IMG/VR virus record: IMGVR_UViG_2740892113_000010
Reading direction: 5' to 3' (one strand)
DNA: 21,266 nucleotides
Source of the DNA: a virus
Taxonomy: Duplodnaviria; Heunggongvirae; Uroviricota; Caudoviricetes
A program made the translations under genes and the position numbers. The first letter of the stretch is position 1. Each line of letters opens with the position of its first letter. Below are positions 3,597 through 20,345 of the stretch, piece by piece. The notes beneath the pieces are model-generated. The model did not search any database, had not been told where the DNA came from, and saw only the letters and a list, made by a program, of their open reading frames with translations.

Positions 3597-4601
3597 TAGT
3601 TGATACCCGCTGCCGAGCTGAAAGCTCTATCAATATTATTTCTGTTTCTGGCGGAAAGGATAGCCTTGCTCAATGGCTTGTTGGTATTGAAAGCGGTGTG
3701 CATTTTTTTGCCGGTTTTTGCAGACACCGGGCATGAGCATCCGCAGACAATGGAGTATCTCGATTATCTGGAGAACCGACTCGGGCCGGTTAAACGGGTT
3801 AAAGCTGACTTCTCCCGACAGATTGAAGGTAAGCGCAAGTTTATTGCTGAGAAATGGCCTGTTTCTCTGGTTGAAGAGTGCGGAATGTCTCCGGGGGAAG
3901 CGGCAGAGCGCATCAATTGTGCGCTGGAAATTCTCAAGCCTACTGGTATCCCATTTCTTGATTTGTGCATGTGGAAAGGGCGATTTCCTTCCACTAAAGC
4001 CAGATTTTGCACTTTTGACCTTAAACATGAGCCAGTACGTACTCAGGTCGTGTTACCTGCGCTTAATGAGTTTGATGAGGTAATTAGCTGGCAGGGGATT
4101 CGCGCTCAGGAGTCTCCTGCGCGCGCGGGTCTGCCTGCCTGGGAAGAGGATGCGGACAATACGCCCGGGCTCCATGTATACCGTCCTATTCTGAACTGGA
4201 CGCATGAGGAGGTATTTGCATTTGCAAGACGTCATGGAATTAAACCTAATCCGTTATACCAGCAGGGATGCAGTCGTGTCGGTTGTATGCCCTGCATCCA
4301 CGCCAGAAAGTCTGAATTAGCTGAAATTTTTAGTCGCTGGCCGGAAGAGGTTAAGCGTGTTGCGGAATGGGAGCGACTTGTCGCCGCATGCTCCAGACGC
4401 GGAAATTCTACTTTCTTCCCGTCAACTCATGACCCGCGTCGTGCGGAACGCCGCATTGATATTATTACTGTCGATGCTTACGGAATTGAGTCTTATCGTG
4501 ACTGGGCGATGACCACGCGTGGCGGGGCACAGTTTGATTTGCTGGCTTCGGTGAATGATAAGTCAGTTTGCAGTAGTGTCTATGCCGGTGTATGTGAATG
4601 A
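3593..4601 (+). pseudogene. PP-loop / PAPS-reductase-family protein, interrupted by a frameshift
   Basis: ATG 3593 (ATGA overlap with the upstream stop) opens a frame encoding MIVDTRCRAESSINIISVSGGKDSLAQWLVGIESGVHFF..., i.e. a canonical SGGKDS PP-loop, which stops at 3734-3736. The long ORF (track 3600..4601) is in a different frame and carries the expected downstream motif FADTGHEHPQT. The two frames overlap across a T7 run (3703-3709) and a T5 run (3715-3719). Removing one T restores ...GVHFLPVFADTGHE... Confidence 0.7.
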
Positions 4602-6883
4602 GTCATTCTTTCCAGGAGCAATACACCTGCGTACCTCCGTCAGCATTTGCTGCAGGCACCGGTAAGGCGTTTACCGGTGCTTATGCATGGAACGCGCCAC
4701 GCGAGGCCGTCGGGCGCGAAAGACCCCTTACACGTGACGAGATGCGTCAGGTGCAAGGTGTTTTATCCACGATTAACCGCCTGCCTTACTTTTTGCGCTC
4801 GCTGTTTACTTCACGCTATGACTACATCCGGCGCAATAAAAGCCCGGTGCACGGGTTTTATTTCCTCACATCTACTTTTCAGCGTCGTTTATGGCCGCGC
4901 ATTGAGCGCGTGAATCAGCGCCATGAAATGAACACCGACGCGTCGTTGCTATTTCTGGCAGAGCGTGACCACTATGCGCGCCTGCCTGGAATGAATGACA
5001 AGGAGCTGAAAAAGTTTGCCGCCCGTATCTCATCGCAGCTTTTCATGATGTATGAGGAACTCTGCGATGCATGGGTTGATGCACATGGCGAAAAAGAATC
5101 GCTGTTTACGGATGAGGCGCAGACTCACCTGTATGGTCATGTTGCTGGCGCTGCACGTGCTTTCAATATTTCCCCGCTCTACTGGAAAAAATACCGTAAA
5201 GGACAGATAACCACGAGGCAGGCATATTCTGCCATTGCCCGTCTGTTTAACGATGAGTGGTGGACTCATCAGCTTAAAGGCCAGCGTATGCGCTGGCATG
5301 AGGCGTTACTGATTGCTGTCGGGGAGGTCAATAAAGACCGTTCTCCTTATGCCAGTAAACATGCCATTCGTGATGTGCGTGCGCGCCGCCAGGCAAATCT
5401 GGAGTTTCTTAAATCGTGTGACCTTGAAAACAGGGAAACCGGCGAACGCATCGACCTTATCAGTAAGGTGATGGGCAGTATTTCTAATCCTGAAATTCGC
5501 CGGATGGAGCTGATGAACACCATTGCCGGTATTGAGCGTTACGCCGCCGCAGAGGGTGATGTGGGGATGTTTATCACGCTGACCGCGCCGTCAAAGTATC
5601 ACCCGACACGTCAGGTCGGAAAAGGCGAAAGTAAAACCGTTCAGCTTAATCACGGCTGGAACGATGAGGCATTTAATCCAAAGGATGCGCAGCGTTATCT
5701 CTGCCGTATCTGGAGCCTGATGCGCACGGCATTCAAGGATAATGATTTACAGGTCTACGGTTTGCGAGTCGTCGAGCCACACCACGACGGAACGCCGCAC
5801 TGGCATATGATGCTTTTTTGTAATCCACGCCAGCGTAACCAGATTATTGAAATCATGCGTCGCTACGCGCTCAAAGAGGATGGCGACGAAAGAGGAGCTG
5901 CGCGAAACCGTTTTCAGGCAAAACACCTTAACCGGGGCGGTGCTGCAGGGTATATCGCGAAATACATCTCAAAAAACATCGATGGCTATGCACTGGATGG
6001 TCAGCTCGATAACGATACCGGCAGGCCGCTGAAAGACACTGCCGCGGCTGTTACCGCATGGGCGTCAACGTGGCGCATTCCGCAATTTAAAACGGTTGGC
6101 CTGCCGACAATGGGGGCTTACCGTGAACTACGCAAATTGCCTCGCGGCGTCAGCATTGCTGATGAGTTTGACGAGCGCGTCGAGGCTGCACGCGCCGCTG
6201 CAGACAGTGGTGATTTTGCGTTGTATATCAGCGCGCAGGGCGGGGCAAATGTCCCGCGCGATTGTCAGACTGTCAGGGTCGCCCGTAGCCCGTCGGATGA
6301 CGTTAACGAGTACGAGGAAGAAGTCGAGAGAGTGGTCGGCATTTACGCGCCGCATCTCGGCGCGCGTCATATTCATATCACCAGAACGACGGACTGGCGC
6401 ATTGTTCCGAAAGTGCCGGTCGTTGAGCCTTTGACTTTAAAAAGCGGCATCGCCGCGCCTCGGAGTCCTGTCAATAACTGTGGAAAGCTCACCGGTGGTG
6501 ATACTTCGTTACCGGCTCCCACACCTTCTGAGCACGCCGCAGCAGTGCTTAATCTGGTAGATGACGGTGTTATCGAATGGAATGACCCGGAGGTCGTGAG
6601 GGCGCTCAGAGGTGCATTAAAACACGGCCTGAGAAGACCAAACCGTCAGCAAAGAAACGGAAGCCCGTTAAAACCGCATGAAATAGCGCCATCGGCCAGA
6701 CTGACCCGGTCTGAACGATTGCAAATCACCCGTATCCGCGTTGACCTTGCTCAGAACGGTATCAGGCCGCAGCGATGGGAGCTTGAGGCGCTGGCGCGTG
6801 GCGCGACCGTAAATTATGACGGGAAAAAATTCACGTATCCGGTCGCTGATGAGTGGTCGGGATTCTGGCATCAATTTGAGTAA
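4598..6883 (+). CDS. A: Rolling-circle replication initiator endonuclease, P2 gpA-like (761 aa)
   Basis: 761 aa, as recalled for P2 gpA. HUH-type motif (TPHWHMMLF) and tyrosines in YIAKYISK. ATGA overlap with the upstream gene. Confidence 0.93.
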   Translation: MSHSFQEQYTCVPPSAFAAGTGKAFTGAYAWNAPREAVGRERPLTRDEMRQVQGVLSTINRLPYFLRSLFTSRYDYIRRNKSPVHGFYFLTSTFQRRLWPRIERVNQRHEMNTDASLLFLAERDHYARLPGMNDKELKKFAARISSQLFMMYEELCDAWVDAHGEKESLFTDEAQTHLYGHVAGAARAFNISPLYWKKYRKGQITTRQAYSAIARLFNDEWWTHQLKGQRMRWHEALLIAVGEVNKDRSPYASKHAIRDVRARRQANLEFLKSCDLENRETGERIDLISKVMGSISNPEIRRMELMNTIAGIERYAAAEGDVGMFITLTAPSKYHPTRQVGKGESKTVQLNHGWNDEAFNPKDAQRYLCRIWSLMRTAFKDNDLQVYGLRVVEPHHDGTPHWHMMLFCNPRQRNQIIEIMRRYALKEDGDERGAARNRFQAKHLNRGGAAGYIAKYISKNIDGYALDGQLDNDTGRPLKDTAAAVTAWASTWRIPQFKTVGLPTMGAYRELRKLPRGVSIADEFDERVEAARAAADSGDFALYISAQGGANVPRDCQTVRVARSPSDDVNEYEEEVERVVGIYAPHLGARHIHITRTTDWRIVPKVPVVEPLTLKSGIAAPRSPVNNCGKLTGGDTSLPAPTPSEHAAAVLNLVDDGVIEWNDPEVVRALRGALKHGLRRPNRQQRNGSPLKPHEIAPSARLTRSERLQITRIRVDLAQNGIRPQRWELEALARGATVNYDGKKFTYPVADEWSGFWHQFE

Positions 6884-6972
6884 GGATCTCATCTATACAG
6901 TATAAGTAGTTTTGACTGTAATTGATTGTTTTTTATATGGTTGCATGCATTAAATCTACGTCAATATCATTA

Positions 6973-7228: not shown

Positions 7229-7909
7229 ATGAAACAATACAGCGAATTAGAAAACAATGTTAAGAGATTCATTGTTGAGCATGAAAAAGGGATTTCTATT
7301 GATGATATTCATCATAAGTTCCGGATGAAGGATGGTCAGAATCGCAAGATGGCAGATTATCTTATTGATAATAAAAAGATAATTTTGGAGATGAAAAGTC
7401 TTTTTTCTGACAGGGTCAAGAATGTCAATGATAAACTGAATGAGTTGGTTAAAACTGATAGTTGGCTTGCAAAAAACTGGCATGGTGCTATTCATTTAGA
7501 AGAGTTGATAAAAAGACACCCAGACTCAAAGCGATTTAGAAATGATATAATGAACTTTGCTTATGAAAATATTAAAACAAAGATAGTTAAGGAAGCTAAT
7601 AAGCAAATAAATGCAACAAAGGATGTTTTGGATTTAAATGACTCGATTGGCGGGTTGATTTTGTTAAATGATAATGTCTTTTCACATGAGTCTAATTATT
7701 TGTCAGATGAAATATTATATTTGCTAGGCACAAAGAGATATTCGAGTGTTGAGTTTGTGGTTTATATTGCAAAATTGATTGATAAACAGGTTGATGTTTG
7801 TGTGCTACTTGACAGTCAATCTAAAAATAAAAATTATATTGAATGGTATATGAATAATGTTTTTTTATTGAACTGGGCGTCTTTTAATAAATATGCAATA
7901 AAGATGTAG
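7229..7909 (+). CDS. Hypothetical protein, 226 aa (cargo, unknown function)
   Basis: Clean ORF 27 bp downstream of the YodC-like gene on the same strand, G-rich SD (GGGGGAAAG). Strongly AT-rich, Lys/Asn/Ile-rich. No Walker A or other recognisable catalytic motif. Confidence 0.7.
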   Translation: MKQYSELENNVKRFIVEHEKGISIDDIHHKFRMKDGQNRKMADYLIDNKKIILEMKSLFSDRVKNVNDKLNELVKTDSWLAKNWHGAIHLEELIKRHPDSKRFRNDIMNFAYENIKTKIVKEANKQINATKDVLDLNDSIGGLILLNDNVFSHESNYLSDEILYLLGTKRYSSVEFVVYIAKLIDKQVDVCVLLDSQSKNKNYIEWYMNNVFLLNWASFNKYAIKM

Positions 7910-8228
7910 TGGTGTGGATGGATATGAAATGAGTCAACCAAGATGCACCTTGGTCAGTAATCTCATGTGAGATACCACATATAACACCAAAAGTGTCAGG
8001 TTGATGGCCATTGTTCACCGTTTACAGCAGATTATGGTCAACGAAAATCTGACGCCTGACGAGCTGGTCGGGTGTGCCGAAATAGTCTGGGATAATTACG
8101 GGCGGTTTAACTATATCGGTCAGTCCAGAGTTGCGCCACCACCACGCAGACGATAGAGAACGCCGCCAGTCGTGAAACTTGTTTTCAGGCTGGCGGAGTT
8201 GAACAACGAGCGAAGTGAGGCGTTAGCA

Positions 8229-9170
8229 TTAAGTTAATTTTAATGAATGGTACTCTATCGAGCTGATTGTAGATGCGATATATTTACGATCATTTACAGA
8301 GAGTATTGCCGCTAGTAGACGACATACCAGAGCCTGCATTTGTAGCAATATATCGCTACCATATTGACAATCATTGATACTAGAGAAACCAAGCGGTTGC
8401 CCATTAAAAATGGCTTCATGAAAATTATCATTGCGTATAACTGAAACATTACATTCATCTGTTGCCCATGACGGGATTTTTACACCGTAATTTTCGCACA
8501 TCCAATATACTCTATTTTGATGAGATGGTTTTTTCTCTTTAATGACTTTATCCCTTTCATCCCATGCTATAGCAAAACAGCAATCAAGAGCCATATAAAG
8601 ATACTGGAATTTCTCAAAGGAAAGGTATAGTGGGTTATGTGACAGGAATAGGGAGTGTATCACCGCAGCTATTCTTTTAATGGAGCGATCATCTTTTTGT
8701 TTGTCTTTTATATAGTTAAGTGCTAGCTCTATTACTTCTTTTTCAGAGCATCCAACGAGAATAAAGTCGGTTAACTTAGTGGGCTTGATAGTGGTTGCAT
8801 CAAGAAAACCAGCGTCAGTGGTTGTCAATCTTATACCCTTGAAAAAAGAGAGGCACCACACAACAAAGTTGAGAGTTTCTAACGAGGATGTGTTTTTTAA
8901 TTTTAGTGTGTGCGTTTTGGGCATGCCGAATACTCGGTAACTATAAGGCATTGTGCATGTGTCACCATTAAGGTTATATACCTTTCGATTCCCAGGGTAT
9001 ATCCAACCATTAACAACGTTTTTATCATTGTTAATACGTTCCACGTTCTCAATAAGACCGGGTAAAGTACGCAAAGAAAATTGTTCAGTCTCAATGTTAA
9101 CTTCTACTGGATAGTATCCAAACTCCGAAATAATCTCATTTGGTTGCTGTTCGTCAACTTCACCTTGCAT
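8229..9170 (-). CDS. Hypothetical protein, 313 aa (cargo, unknown function)
   Basis: Minus-strand ORF convergent with the 226-aa gene. SD GGAGA 5 nt upstream of the ATG (complement of 9168-9170). AT-rich. No P-loop, so not an Old-type ATPase. Confidence 0.7.
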   Translation of the reverse strand: MQGEVDEQQPNEIISEFGYYPVEVNIETEQFSLRTLPGLIENVERINNDKNVVNGWIYPGNRKVYNLNGDTCTMPYSYRVFGMPKTHTLKLKNTSSLETLNFVVWCLSFFKGIRLTTTDAGFLDATTIKPTKLTDFILVGCSEKEVIELALNYIKDKQKDDRSIKRIAAVIHSLFLSHNPLYLSFEKFQYLYMALDCCFAIAWDERDKVIKEKKPSHQNRVYWMCENYGVKIPSWATDECNVSVIRNDNFHEAIFNGQPLGFSSINDCQYGSDILLQMQALVCRLLAAILSVNDRKYIASTISSIEYHSLKLT

Positions 9171-9408
9171 AACTTTCTCCGTTCAAAAACAGGCACGATA
9201 ATTCTCGTAAGCCTATCATGTTCGCAAAGTATCCATACCTGTGGATTTTGTAAATTTAAGTTGATTTGTCATTAAATAAGCCGTTGCATGCAACAAGTGA
9301 ATGTTTTTGCATGCGTCGGGGATGTCCGTTCAGGCTGCGTGCGGTCAGGACTGGTGCGGATCCATAGTATCTATGCAACTGCATTAAAACCGCCCCATGA
9401 AGCGGGCG

Positions 9409-9427
9409 GGCGAGGCGGGGAAAGCAC
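9409..9427. other. cos site core, P2-type 19-nt cohesive-end sequence GGCGAGGCGGGGAAAGCAC
   Basis: Exact string read at 9409-9427 in the GC-rich spacer between the cargo island and the portal gene Q. It matches the P2/P4 cohesive-end sequence as I recall it (from memory) and sits where cos is expected, next to Q. Confidence 0.6.
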
Positions 9428-9561
9428 TGCGCGCTGGCGGTGGTGCTGATTTTATTTTTTCAGCGTCTCAGCGCGTCGTGATGGCATTTAGTCGGCCTGC
9501 TGGGGCGTTGGTGTGTCTGCGGGGTGTTTTGTGCGGTGGTGAGGGCGTGATGACGGGATGT

Positions 9562-9583
9562 AAAAAAGCCGCCCGCAGGCGGC
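9562..9583 (-). terminator. Intrinsic terminator downstream of Q (leftward P-Q operon)
   Basis: On the minus strand: GCCGCC-TGCG-GGCGGC hairpin followed by TTTTTT, 5 nt past the Q stop codon. Confidence 0.6.
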
Positions 9584-9588
9584 GATGT

Positions 9589-10623
9589 TCAGCCGTTGTC
9601 AGTGTCAAGTGAGTAGTTTTTAAAGCGGATGACCTCCTGACCGAGCCAGTCGTTTATCTCGCGGATCCTGTCCTGTAACGGGATAAGCTCATTGCGGACA
9701 AAGACCTTTGCCACTTTCTCAATATCACCCAGCGACCCGACGTTCTCCGGCTTGCCACCCATCAACTGAAAGGGGATGCGGTGCGCGTCCAGCAGGTCAG
9801 CGGCGCTGGCTTTTTTGATATTAAAAAAATCGTCCTTCGTCGCCACTTCACTGAGGGGGATAATTTTAATGCCGTCGGCTTTCCCCTGTGGGGCATAGAG
9901 AAACAGATTTTTAAAGTTATTGCGGCCTTTCGACTTCACCATGTTTTCGCGAAGCATTTCGATATCGTTGCGATCCTGCACGGCATCGGTGACGTACATG
10001 ATGTATCCAGCATGTGCGCCATTTTCGTAATACTTGCGGCGGAACAGCGTGGCCGACTCATTCAGCCAGGCAGAGTTAAGGGCGCTGAGATATTCCGGCA
10101 GGCCGTACAGCTCCTGATTAATATCCGGCTCCAGCAGGTGAAACACGGAGCCGGACGCGAAGGCTGTCGGCTCGTTGAAGGACGGCACCCACCAGTAAAC
10201 ATCCTCCTCCACGCCACGGCGGGTATATTTTGCCGGTGAGGTTTCCAGCCTGATAACCTTACCGGTGGTGCTGTAACGCTTTTCCAGAAACGCATTACCG
10301 AACACCAGAAAATCCAGCACAAAGCGGCTGAAATCCTGCTGGGAAAGCCACGGGTGCGGAATAAACGTTGAAGCCAGAATATTACGTTTGACGTAAATCG
10401 GTGAGCTGTGATGTACGGCAGCACGCAGGCTTTTTGCCAGACCGGTAAAGCTGACCGGTGGCTCATACCATCTGCCGTTACTGATGCACTCGACGTAATC
10501 CAGAATGTCACGGCGGTCGAGTACCGGCACCGGCTCACCAAAGGTGAATGCCTCCATTTTCGGGGCGCTGGCGGTCATTGTTTTCACCGCAGGTTGCGGT
10601 GTTTTCCCTTTTTTCTTGCTCAT
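9589..10623 (-). CDS. Q: Portal protein, P2 gpQ-like (344 aa)
   Basis: 344 aa, next to cos, start overlapping the stop of P; order and length as in P2. Confidence 0.93.
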   Translation of the reverse strand: MSKKKGKTPQPAVKTMTASAPKMEAFTFGEPVPVLDRRDILDYVECISNGRWYEPPVSFTGLAKSLRAAVHHSSPIYVKRNILASTFIPHPWLSQQDFSRFVLDFLVFGNAFLEKRYSTTGKVIRLETSPAKYTRRGVEEDVYWWVPSFNEPTAFASGSVFHLLEPDINQELYGLPEYLSALNSAWLNESATLFRRKYYENGAHAGYIMYVTDAVQDRNDIEMLRENMVKSKGRNNFKNLFLYAPQGKADGIKIIPLSEVATKDDFFNIKKASAADLLDAHRIPFQLMGGKPENVGSLGDIEKVAKVFVRNELIPLQDRIREINDWLGQEVIRFKNYSLDTDNG

Positions 10624-17894: not shown

Positions 17895-18324
17895 CGCCGT
17901 CACGGTGCTGAAAACCAGTCCCGAGATGCTGCGGATATTCGTGGATAACGGGAGTATTGCCTCCACACTGGCGACGTCTATGTCATTCGAAAAGCGTTAC
18001 ACGCTCAATGTGATTGTGACCGACTTTACCGGTGATTTTGACCTGCTCATTGTGCCGGTGCTGGCGTGGCTGCGGGAAAATCAGCCAGACATCATGACCA
18101 CCGACGAAGGCCAGAAAAAGGGCTTCACGTTTTATGCAGACATCAACAATGACAGCAGCTTTGATATCAGCATCAGCCTGATGCTGACCGAGCGCACGCT
18201 GGTCAGTGAGGTGGAAGGCGCGCTACATGTGAAGAATATCCCGGAACCTCCGCCGCCGGAGCCGGTTACCCGCCCGATGGAGCTGTATATCAATGGCGAA
18301 CTGGTGAGCAAGTGGGATGAATGA
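17857..18324 (+). CDS. R: Tail completion protein, P2 gpR-like (155 aa)
   Basis: 155 aa; position and length as in P2. Confidence 0.85.
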   Translation: MLKPDSLRRALTDAVTVLKTSPEMLRIFVDNGSIASTLATSMSFEKRYTLNVIVTDFTGDFDLLIVPVLAWLRENQPDIMTTDEGQKKGFTFYADINNDSSFDISISLMLTERTLVSEVEGALHVKNIPEPPPPEPVTRPMELYINGELVSKWDE

Positions 18325-18769
18325 GTTTAAGCGTTTTGAAGACCGGCTGACCGGACTGACTGAATCGCTGTCACCGTCAGGGCGTCGGCGACTGAGCGCC
18401 GAACTGGCGAAACGTCTGCGTCAGAGTCAGCAGCGTCGGGTGATGGCACAGAAAGCCCCGGACGGCACACCCTACGTGCCACGCCAGCAGCAGAGCGCCA
18501 GAAAAAAGACCGGTCGTGTTAAGCGAAAAATGTTTGCGAAACTTATCACCAGTCGTTTTTTGCATATCCGCGCCAGCCCGGAACAGGCATCAATGGAGTT
18601 TTACGGCGGGAAGTCGCCGAAAATTGCCAGTGTGCATCAGTTCGGTCTGTCGGAAGAAACCCGGAAAGACGGTAAGAAAACTGATTATCCGGCGCGTCCT
18701 CTGCTCGGCTTTACCGGTGAGGATGTGCAGATGATTGAAGAGATTATCCTGGCTCACCTTGAGCGTTAG
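18317..18769 (+). CDS. S: Tail completion protein, P2 gpS-like (150 aa)
   Basis: 150 aa, overlaps the R end; position and length as in P2. Confidence 0.85.
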   Translation: MNEFKRFEDRLTGLTESLSPSGRRRLSAELAKRLRQSQQRRVMAQKAPDGTPYVPRQQQSARKKTGRVKRKMFAKLITSRFLHIRASPEQASMEFYGGKSPKIASVHQFGLSEETRKDGKKTDYPARPLLGFTGEDVQMIEEIILAHLER

Positions 18770-18798: not shown

Positions 18799-18835
18799 TA
18801 AACATTGAGCGGCCGTGCTGGTCGCTCAATGTTTA
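18799..18835. repeat. Perfect inverted repeat (12-13 bp arms, 11-nt loop) between S and the antisense cargo gene
   Basis: AAACATTGAGCG (18800-18811) and CGCTCAATGTTT (18823-18834) are exact reverse complements, extendable by one bp. Lies between the stops of the convergent S and 261-aa genes. Not followed by a U-run on either strand. Confidence 0.55.
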
Positions 18836-18840
18836 GAGGT

Positions 18841-19626
18841 TTATGAGTGGTTTTTATTTGATGCTTTGTATTCTAAAACCTTCTTATTGGCGTAAAGGAA
18901 TTTTGTGTATGACAGGAATATAAATAGACCTGAAATGAAATAGATTAGGGATATTATTAATAATGTTTTTCTGTGGCTGTTATTATCTTTAATCTCCTGA
19001 CTTAACCATTCGGAGTCCTCCTCGTTTAGCTGTAAGAGCTTATTGCAGGCGATTGCAGGAAGTGTGTCTGTTACAAAAGTGTTCTGCAGTCTCTTGCAAT
19101 CGGCAATGCTAAAAGCTTTATAGAACTTATCTGTTTTATTGTCGGAGAACAAAAGAACCTTGTCATTATAAACATGGTACATCATATTTTTATATGGTAT
19201 GGCTATGGCATCCTCTACTATGGCAGATTGCTCGTTGTGTATGCAACATGCGAAGATAATATAAAGAATTCCGGCCAGGACTGCACTCATTGTTTTTGTG
19301 ATGCATGGCGGTTCTGTTATGTCTCCCCAGAAGCGAGTAAGGAAAAAATCCGATGTTTTTAGTTTTCCATCAATCAGCCCCTGCTGTATCATTCTCACAT
19401 CTTCGATGCCTGATACATTGATTCCGTTAAGTATTTTAAATAGTTGAATGTCGCGCCACTCGCGGTCCAGTCTTTTTAATTTTTTGTCTGAATATCCAAA
19501 TTTGAAATAATGTGCAATAAGCCTCATAAGGTTACTTTTACCAAAGCTAAAAAATGCTAATACTGCAAAGACCAAAAGATACAAAACGATTAGCTCCCAC
19601 ACATTAGTCACATTATAGCTGACCAT
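18841..19626 (-). CDS. Membrane protein, 261 aa, three hydrophobic segments (cargo between S and V)
   Basis: Minus-strand ORF with a strong SD (AAGGAGAG, 6-nt spacer to the ATG at 19626). Hydrophobic stretches near residues 10-28, 112-129 and 221-240. AT-rich, unlike the flanking tail genes. Confidence 0.72.
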   Translation of the reverse strand: MVSYNVTNVWELIVLYLLVFAVLAFFSFGKSNLMRLIAHYFKFGYSDKKLKRLDREWRDIQLFKILNGINVSGIEDVRMIQQGLIDGKLKTSDFFLTRFWGDITEPPCITKTMSAVLAGILYIIFACCIHNEQSAIVEDAIAIPYKNMMYHVYNDKVLLFSDNKTDKFYKAFSIADCKRLQNTFVTDTLPAIACNKLLQLNEEDSEWLSQEIKDNNSHRKTLLIISLIYFISGLFIFLSYTKFLYANKKVLEYKASNKNHS

Positions 19627-19709
19627 TACGCTCTCCTTGAATGTTGTCTGGTGGTTCTACAAATGAATCCAGATAGCATAACTTTTATATATTGTGCAAT
19701 CTCACATGC

Positions 19710-20345
19710 ATGGACACTCTCGCAAATATTCAGGAACTCGCGCGCGCACTGCGCAACATGATTCGTACCGGCATTATCGTTGAAACCGACCTTAACGCCG
19801 GTCGCTGCCGTGTGCAGACCGGCGGCATGTGCACCGACTGGCTTCAGTGGCTGACCCATCGCGCCGGACGTTCGCGCACATGGTGGGCACCTTCCGTGGG
19901 GGAACAGGTGCTGATTCTGGCCGTGGGCGGTGAACTCGACACGGCGTTCGTTCTGCCGGGGATTTATTCCGGCGATAACCCTGCGCCGTCTGCGTCGGCG
20001 GATGCCCTGCATATCCGTTTCCCTGACGGGGCGGTGATTGAGTATGAACCCGAAACCAGTGCGCTTACGGTAAGCGGAATTAAAACGGCCAGCGTGACGG
20101 CTTCTGATTCTGTTACTGCCACGGTGCCGGTGGTCATGGTGAAAGCATCAACCCGCATCACTCTGGACACGCCGGAGGTGGTCTGCACAAACAAGCTGAT
20201 CACCGGCACGCTGGAAGTGCAGAAGGGCGGGACGATGCGCGGCAACATTGAACACACCGGCGGTGAACTCTCATCAAACGGTAAGGTACTGCATACCCAT
20301 AAACACCCCGGCGACAGCGGCGGCACAACCGGGAGTCCTTTATGA
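19710..20345 (+). CDS. V: Baseplate spike / assembly protein, P2 gpV-like (211 aa)
   Basis: ORF track 19692..20345 starts at TTG; ATG 19710 (MDTLANIQELARAL...) gives 211 aa as in P2 gpV. No obvious SD immediately upstream. Confidence 0.88.
   Translation: MDTLANIQELARALRNMIRTGIIVETDLNAGRCRVQTGGMCTDWLQWLTHRAGRSRTWWAPSVGEQVLILAVGGELDTAFVLPGIYSGDNPAPSASADALHIRFPDGAVIEYEPETSALTVSGIKTASVTASDSVTATVPVVMVKASTRITLDTPEVVCTNKLITGTLEVQKGGTMRGNIEHTGGELSSNGKVLHTHKHPGDSGGTTGSPL

Follow-up and report, generated by a model that had tools for sequence, protein, structure and literature searches.

What is a minus-strand, AT-rich gene for a membrane protein doing between two tail genes of a P2-like phage, and does it belong there at all? 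The question is raised by the IMG/VR virus record IMGVR_UViG_2740892113_000010, a stretch of 21,266 nucleotides that we refer to as the window, in which an open reading frame (ORF) on the minus strand (18841..19626) lies between genes S and V. A preliminary description, made from the letters alone, had taken it for foreign cargo in a structural operon, plausibly expressed in the lysogen. Our comparison makes it near certain that the window gene is an ortholog, or allelic variant, of P2 orf30: a non-essential, AT-rich accessory gene that lies antisense between two late operons. It has been catalogued since the annotation of the P2 sequence and is a known gene, not fresh foreign cargo.

Identity of the antisense gene

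As read from the window sequence, the ORF starts with ATG and encodes 261 amino acids. In a tblastn search of deposited phage genomes, its product aligned with Orf30 of P2 (AF063097) over 261 of 261 residues at 81.2% amino acid identity (E 5e-130). Altogether, 21 phage records were matched, all of them P2-type, over the full length and with 77-96% identity. The protein also matched phrog_2407 (E 2.6e-137, profile positions 1-261 of 261), which is annotated as 'unknown function'. In the P2 record, orf30 occupies complement 9439-10224 (AAD03281.1), is annotated 'nonessential', and has the same length, strand and neighbours as the window gene, with the S terminator on one side and the PV site and V on the other. 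A 2.1-kb region aligned with P2 from end to end at 94% DNA identity, and the window, P2 and six other phages were collinear and free of indels, every feature standing at an equal offset. The nearest alleles (96%) were those of the Yersinia-plated phages vB_YpM_46 and VB-YPM-4, and E. coli strain 4/0 was 100% identical to the window across the S-V region. The proteins encoded by the orf30 alleles diverge by up to 23%, the flanks by only 1-2%.

The preliminary description had assumed that the S-V gap of P2 holds only a small orf30. This is not the case: the P2 gene has 786 bp and 261 codons, lies on the same strand and encodes a protein 81% identical to that of the window. The assumption may go back to a size slip in the paper on phage R18C, where P2 ORF30 is called 'short, 261-bp-long' (PMC6823313). 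What survives of the notion of foreign cargo is an accessory, non-structural gene that codes for a membrane protein and has a foreign base composition; since P2 has it too, it does not distinguish the window from P2. The shared position in P2 comes with no structural role.

Operon structure around orf30

Gene S (18317..18769, plus strand), which is collinear with P2 S and serves in tail completion and virion morphogenesis, is the last gene of the O late operon. It is followed by a hairpin with a 16-bp stem (18799..18835, both strands) that is common to the convergent S and orf30 transcripts and corresponds to the P2 feature 9397-9433, annotated there as 'putative rho-independent terminator for O operon'. 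The hairpin has a folding energy of -25.4 kcal/mol on the plus strand and -20.9 kcal/mol on the minus strand, with z about -6 (minus strand, -6.7), and 0 of 200 shuffled sequences were as stable. The stem is kept in eight alleles, changes being found mainly in the loop. On the orf30 strand, the hairpin begins 5 nt past the stop codon and is followed by UUUAAUU; it probably acts as the orf30 terminator as well.

On the other side of orf30, the binding site for the late activator (Ogr) at the PV promoter was mapped by collinearity to 19641..19668 (plus strand) from the P2 misc_feature 10239-10266, which the P2 record describes, between orf30 and V, as 'activator binding site; activation of pV promoter'. 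Gene V (19710..20345, plus strand), assigned by collinearity with P2, encodes the baseplate spike and opens a late operon of its own. Among the eight alleles, the spacer 19627-19709 hardly varies. The Ogr consensus, which we take to be TGT-N12-ACA, had no exact match in the window, the spacing at the PV site being N11; it is present in the spacers of 186-type phages.

In this arrangement, orf30 interrupts no operon: the O operon has ended at its terminator before the gene, and the V-operon promoter follows on the other side. The terminator after S and the separate, activator-dependent V promoter of P2, both conserved in the window, contradict the earlier view of a gene that breaks up a late operon R, S, V, W, J. 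The observation that V has no obvious Shine-Dalgarno sequence was correct: none precedes its ATG (19710) in the window. The same is true of prophages with an empty S-V site, so that V did not lose a native leader through displacement. The lack is explained by the P2 record, which places the transcription start of the V operon on the A of V's ATG. With this start site, the V message would be leaderless.

Occupancy of the S-V junction in E. coli

The preliminary description had proposed comparing the S-V junction in other P2-like prophages. Among 5426 complete E. coli genomes, the junction was found in 1586, and it held orf30, nothing or other AT-rich cargo; orf30 was carried by 460 of the 1586 genomes (29%). 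An evenly spaced sample of 60 contained 18 with orf30, 37 with an 'empty' 66-bp spacer and three with other AT-rich genes. The other cargo was a 247-aa minus-strand gene (phrog_12680) or a 246-aa plus-strand gene (phrog_10503), the product of the latter type resembling a protein described in phage R18C (PMC6823313). S-V is thus a hotspot in the usual sense, with different, unrelated genes between the same conserved anchors in related phages. Between occupied and empty forms, homology breaks within ~9 nt of the S stop codon and resumes exactly at the V ATG, which shows that the variable unit is the whole module of terminator, orf30 and PV region. The orf30 region had been recognized before as the third place of non-P2, presumably horizontally acquired genes in P2-like phages (PMC3091744), and is unlisted in recent surveys of P2 hotspots, which cover old/tin and Z/fun (PMC9122126, PMC9519451, bioRxiv 10.1101/2024.10.15.618418).

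The empty junction, exemplified by E. coli AB_24_S34 (L002, 671-736), consists of 66 bp that include a GC-rich hairpin, GCCGCCGG-TATGA-CCCGGCGGC. It has neither a T-run nor a P2-type activator site, so V may be co-transcribed with S in most E. coli P2-like prophages.

Predicted protein and its family

All features that had been listed for the gene itself, i.e. the minus-strand ORF of 261 codons, the strong Shine-Dalgarno sequence, the distinct composition and the three hydrophobic segments, were recovered when we re-read the sequence. The start region on its own strand is AAGGAG-AGCGTA-ATG; the Shine-Dalgarno sequence (19633..19638, minus strand) lies 6 nt 5' of the ATG and is AAGGAG in six of eight alleles and GAGGAG in two. 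The GC content is 36.4% for orf30, 54.5% for S and 59.4% for V. By our own estimate, the chance of 261 open codons is ~1e-8, with a stop-codon frequency of ~7% at the local composition. A chance ORF or a pseudogene is ruled out by the full-length homologs and by a ratio of nonsynonymous to synonymous substitution rates (dN/dS) of 0.46, i.e. below 1. In its deviant base composition and its own terminator-like hairpin, orf30 corresponds to a moron as defined by Hendrix.

The alignment with P2, the phrog_2407 match, hydropathy, the AlphaFold model and dN/dS together characterize the gene at 18841..19626 as the orf30 ortholog, encoding a three-helix membrane protein. Hydrophobic segments (Kyte-Doolittle, 19-residue mean of at least 2.0) were found at residues ~9-28, ~111-130 and ~220-241, parted by charged loops of ~80 and ~90 residues, and all three are long helices in the AlphaFold model (AF2, pLDDT 82). 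The predicted layout has the N-terminus outside, a first transmembrane segment (TM1, ~9-28), a cytoplasmic helical loop (29-108), TM2 (~109-134), a periplasmic alpha/beta loop (135-219) with the conserved residues Cys177 and Cys194, TM3 (~220-243) and a basic C-terminal tail inside. This N-out topology, with loop 1 in, loop 2 out and the tail in, is predicted from the positive-inside rule and the Cys pair: the N-terminus is uncharged, Lys/Arg follow directly after TM1 and the C-terminal tail is basic, with which the Cys pair in loop 2 is consistent. The window protein had no match in Pfam, even at E <= 1, or in NCBIfam, and a sequence profile search of the Protein Data Bank (PDB) with Orf30 yielded nothing. 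No fold match was obtained either.

A word-indexed search with Orf30 retrieved four 90%-identity clusters only, whereas an exhaustive HMMER search retrieved 42 cluster representatives, ~22 of them full length (250-270 aa). In a family alignment of 24 sequences, whose distant members are 19-33% identical to the window protein, G68, G87, C194 and I212 are invariant and G29, Q61, D76, C177 and K254 nearly so; the best-kept stretch in loop 1 reads D-x-Q-L-F-R-x-x-N-G-I-N-V ... D-A. Homologs antisense between S and V were present in 12 IMG/VR P2-like contigs (24-28% identical to the window protein) and in one Enterobacter metagenome-assembled genome (36-38%), and one distant S-V homolog is already assigned to phrog_2407 in PHROGs. 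The V, R and J proteins of the phages with distant homologs are 75-86%, 69-82% and ~80% identical to those of the window. Homologs of 24-28% identity in the same slot, beside well-conserved V and R, show that orf30 is an old resident of this slot which diverges far faster than its neighbours. All family members examined have a GC content of 31-36% within flanks of 43-63%. A tblastn search with the distant homologs gave no phage records beyond the orf30 set and no plasmid matches, and one distant-homolog subgroup (represented by P0025) was absent from complete E. coli genomes. In other taxa, 33 of the 33 intact P2-like prophage or viral loci examined had a member of the wider superfamily (see below) at S-V, always antisense.

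These data bear on the idea of a recent foreign insertion, absent from P2, that split an R-S-V-W-J operon and displaced the leader of V. Such an event could account for the sharp drop in GC content and for the homology that breaks directly after the S stop codon and resumes at the V ATG, and in the empty prophages just 66 bp part S from V, so that the two may be co-transcribed. Nevertheless, the gene is found at this very place in P2, terminator, gene and PV form one conserved module, the superfamily occupies the slot across divergent P2-like and 186-like phages, and V is without a Shine-Dalgarno sequence in both configurations. We consider this scenario practically dismissed.

Three further observations concern the neighbourhood of the distant homologs. 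First, the S protein (gpS) is 47-54% identical between P2 and the distant-homolog phages (L016-L027), compared with 69-86% for the adjacent R and V; its divergence accompanies that of the antisense neighbour, for which linkage to the swapping of alleles might be responsible, or else an interaction. Second, one IMG/VR P2-like contig (L025) has two extra genes upstream of the Orf30 homolog on the same strand (5965-6507 and 6498-6899), encoding a 180-aa protein with an HExxH motif (HEFVHIWQH) and a 133-aa lipoprotein with a lipobox and DUF7480 (E 2e-21); the pair resembles a toxin/immunity pair beside the spike gene. Third, the Enterobacter metagenome-assembled genome (L015) has a second S-V cargo gene beside the Orf30 homolog (7996-8817, minus strand), oriented as the late genes, whose 273-aa product has two N-terminal hydrophobic helices and no Pfam or PHROG match.

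Selection and recombination

Among eight close alleles, dN/dS was 0.46 for orf30 and 0.07-0.12 for R, S, V and W. Within orf30, the soluble parts had values of 0.2-0.4, whereas TM1 and TM3 reached ~1.0-1.2. The loops of Orf30 are therefore under purifying selection, and the membrane anchors are loosely constrained. Positive selection as the cause of the fast divergence was not demonstrated, the ratio being only marginally above 1, and this in TM1. The allele trees of orf30 disagree with those of the flanks: between two loci (L001 and L033), the synonymous divergence (dS) was 0.006 for orf30 and 0.094 for V, which points to recombination.

Could the gene be a selfish or neutral passenger, i.e. 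a potentially toxic AT-rich membrane protein that is silenced, for example by H-NS, and persists by linkage or an addiction-like effect? Its AT-richness in every context, the want of a strong promoter, the relaxed selection on the helices and the fact that it is dispensable and often absent would all fit. The ratio of 0.2-0.4 in the soluble loops is, by contrast, a mark of purifying selection; full-length ORFs, conserved motifs and the Cys pair persist at ~24% identity, and the intact survival of the gene in heavily deleted prophage remnants, described below, argues for selection. We therefore regard a mere passenger as improbable.

Relation to DUF6216

Five of the 24 family members matched PF19723 (DUF6216) at E <= 0.01, the best at 8.7e-7. 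The window protein misses the gathering score of this model (27.3 bits) and is for this reason not filed as a DUF6216 member. A canonical member, WP_000115390.1, is encoded in the cryptic P2-like prophage of BL21(DE3); it is named 'DUF6216 family protein' in RefSeq, scores 44.5 bits to PF19723 and lies antisense between S and V. The BL21-type gene turned up in 111 of the complete E. coli genomes, REL606 and E. coli C among them, and canonical DUF6216 at S-V in most of 19 further viral loci, four of these loci being truncated or deletion remnants without V or S.

When the alignments of the Orf30 family and DUF6216 were compared with hhalign, they matched with an E value of 3.5e-5 and a probability of 72% over 143 columns (Orf30 108-259, DUF6216 82-240). 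The match covers TM2, loop 2 and TM3, both conserved cysteines are aligned, and the N-terminal third is unaligned. With a profile against a single sequence, the hhalign probability was only 13%, and pairwise BLAST was not significant. The two groups share the antisense S-V slot, similar lengths (264-268 aa for DUF6216), three helices, a basic C-terminal tail, a low GC content (~33% for DUF6216) and, in the periplasmic loop, a pair of conserved cysteines with an L-L-T-T-D/E-like motif after them. They differ in loop 1, which has ~40 residues in DUF6216 and ~80 in Orf30 and is not alignable, and in their distance from S, since the BL21-type gene overlaps the 3' end of S whereas orf30 is set off from S by the hairpin. 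These similarities suggest that Orf30 is a divergent, remotely related branch of a DUF6216-like superfamily.

The intact DUF6216 gene lies in a decayed P2-like prophage both in BL21(DE3) (L034, 872-893 kb) and in E. coli C (NZ_CP029371, 1213513-1214319); the E. coli B strains that have it intact are BL21, REL606 and C43. The decayed prophage of BL21 also has a St85-family retron at the old/tin position.

Genomic contexts and site of action

Where does the protein act? Several contexts are informative. In Pantoea, a cI-yebY-int-gene string at a prophage edge closes with a homolog that overlaps the last part of int. At the Pantoea site between rplS and an acetyltransferase/aroF, one strain has a full P2/186-like prophage that ends in int and the family gene, and another retains nothing but the family gene and an upstream 79-aa ORF (ARC270, L008 7775-8777, compared with L005), which suggests that the gene was kept after prophage loss. 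A Serratia rubidaea remnant contains fragments of Q, V, O, P and A plus ogr, S and an intact DUF6216 gene (in the order ogr-DUF6216-S), a K. aerogenes remnant flanked by insertion sequences (IS) has an intact copy, and a remnant at the ybjL site retains DUF6216 together with CI and an OLD-like ATPase. Almost none of the structural genes are left in such remnants. Outside phages, an orphan chromosomal homolog of Enterobacter (36% identical) is found among DsbD, ECF-sigma, MCP, LacI and GH32 genes, and one relative, with no phage nearby, is flanked by LysE and LysR genes. The survival in remnants, the orphan copies, the cI-int string and the constantly low GC content point to a protein that is sufficient by itself, does its work in the cell and is kept once the phage is dead.

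Orientation, dispensability and survival outside phages argue against a virion component or a lysis protein, and we reject both readings. A less direct lytic role would be that of a non-essential helper in lysis timing, in membrane protection during tail assembly or in DNA entry, kept by co-regulation with the late genes. Its strict position beside PV and the activator site in both the P2-type and the 186-type lineages would agree with this, as would the nearly invariant spacer and the location just downstream of the lysis genes. On the other hand, the late operons on either side run antisense to the gene, which converges with S and, in the BL21 type, overlaps it, so that late transcription would oppose orf30. 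It is also annotated as nonessential in P2 and absent from most E. coli P2-like prophages, intact copies are found where all lytic functions have been lost and outside phages as well, and one homolog sits in a lysogeny operon. A lytic helper is therefore quite unlikely.

Proposed function

The reading that we consider the likeliest of those discussed, and hold tentatively, is that Orf30 may be a lysogen-acting inner-membrane protein that interferes with incoming foreign phages at an envelope or inner-membrane step. As long as the prophage resides in the host, this one protein would act by itself in the inner membrane. The ~90-residue periplasmic domain with its conserved Cys pair would face the envelope and the conserved ~80-residue cytoplasmic helical domain would face inward. 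The benefit to the lysogen would be exclusion, or membrane-level abortive infection, of other phages. Expression of orf30 may be conditional and subject to silencing by H-NS, which is plausible because of the low GC content.

There are precedents for such a protein. HK97 gp15, P22 SieA and T4 Imm are small inner-membrane superinfection-exclusion proteins, each encoded by a single gene that is non-essential for the phage, and HK97 gp15 is, like orf30, a compositionally distinct 'moron' in the late region. Orf30, with three helices and two soluble domains, differs from them in size and topology and has no sequence or fold relation to them, and the window protein matched no PHROG annotated as exclusion. 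We know of no exclusion phenotype of orf30.

Several points weigh against interference with other phages. The PADLOC defence models gave 0 families at E <= 1 for the window protein, a PADLOC scan of the BL21 DUF6216 homolog also gave no match, and homology provides no link of the family to defence. The raised dN/dS in the helices fits relaxed constraint on anchors equally well as an arms race. Around 60% of the E. coli P2-like prophages have no S-V gene at all, i.e. the gene is dispensable. A consensus promoter scan detected no minus-strand site upstream of orf30, and our own promoter scoring gave weak candidates only (TTGCGA-N16-GAGATT and GTGAGA-N19-TATGCT); none of these is a convincing sigma-70 promoter for expression of orf30 in the lysogen. 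The earlier suggestion of a gene at work in the lysogen is supported in outline, in that the decayed prophages, the orphan copies and the cI-int operon point to the host or lysogen and away from the virion. Furthermore, an intact DUF6216 gene lies at S-V in E. coli B as well as in E. coli C, the classical permissive hosts of phages, so this allele is no visible block to P2 or T phages in wild-type cells. Since P2 vir mutants form plaques on P2 lysogens, Orf30 does not exclude P2 itself, and the exclusion phenotypes known from P2 lysogens are attributed to old, tin and fun rather than orf30.

Some of this evidence would serve just as well for a lysogenic-conversion factor that alters an envelope property or stress response of the host (for example colonisation, serum or bile tolerance, or signalling) and confers no phage resistance. 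Retention in remnants, orphan chromosomal copies and placement in a cI-int operon fit such a factor equally, the permissive E. coli B and C carry a family member, no defence family is matched, and one relative has LysE and LysR genes as neighbours. However, no domain hints at an enzymatic or transport role, so fast a divergence at a constant phage position (24% identity, compared with 75-86% for V) is expected of conflict genes more than of housekeeping-like conversion genes, and one remnant pairs the gene with an OLD-like ATPase. A conversion factor is in our view unlikely, without being far-fetched.

If, in contrast, the product does interfere with incoming phages, the proposal can be widened: Orf30 and DUF6216 might be an unrecognised superfamily of single-gene inner-membrane anti-phage proteins, with S-V as a dedicated third defence slot of Peduoviridae across Enterobacterales, normally silenced by H-NS owing to the low GC content and turned into domesticated immunity genes after prophage decay. 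We offer this wider form as speculation, and consider it doubtful as a whole.

Significance

In P2, old/tin (the TO region) and Z/fun (the Z region) are the documented defence hotspots; in P2-like phages, S-V holds orf30, nothing or other AT-rich genes. The slots differ in that the TO region has a diverse repertoire whereas S-V has one dominant protein superfamily. In the window, the documented old/tin hotspot, between the replication gene A (4598-6883) and the portal gene Q (9589-10623), contains two genes of unknown function without Pfam or PADLOC match, one for a 226-aa protein (7229-7909, plus strand, phrog_20483) and one for a 313-aa protein (8229-9170, minus strand, phrog_5937). Both are candidates for uncharacterised defence cargo.

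To conclude, orf30 is one of the last P2 genes without a function, and it represents a branch of a superfamily, not a random insert. Our additions to what was known are modest: the superfamily link, the generality of the slot and the survival of the gene in prophage remnants, including those of E. coli B and C. If exclusion or abortive infection proves to be the true function, orf30 would give this model phage a third defence locus and the defence catalogue a new family of membrane proteins.

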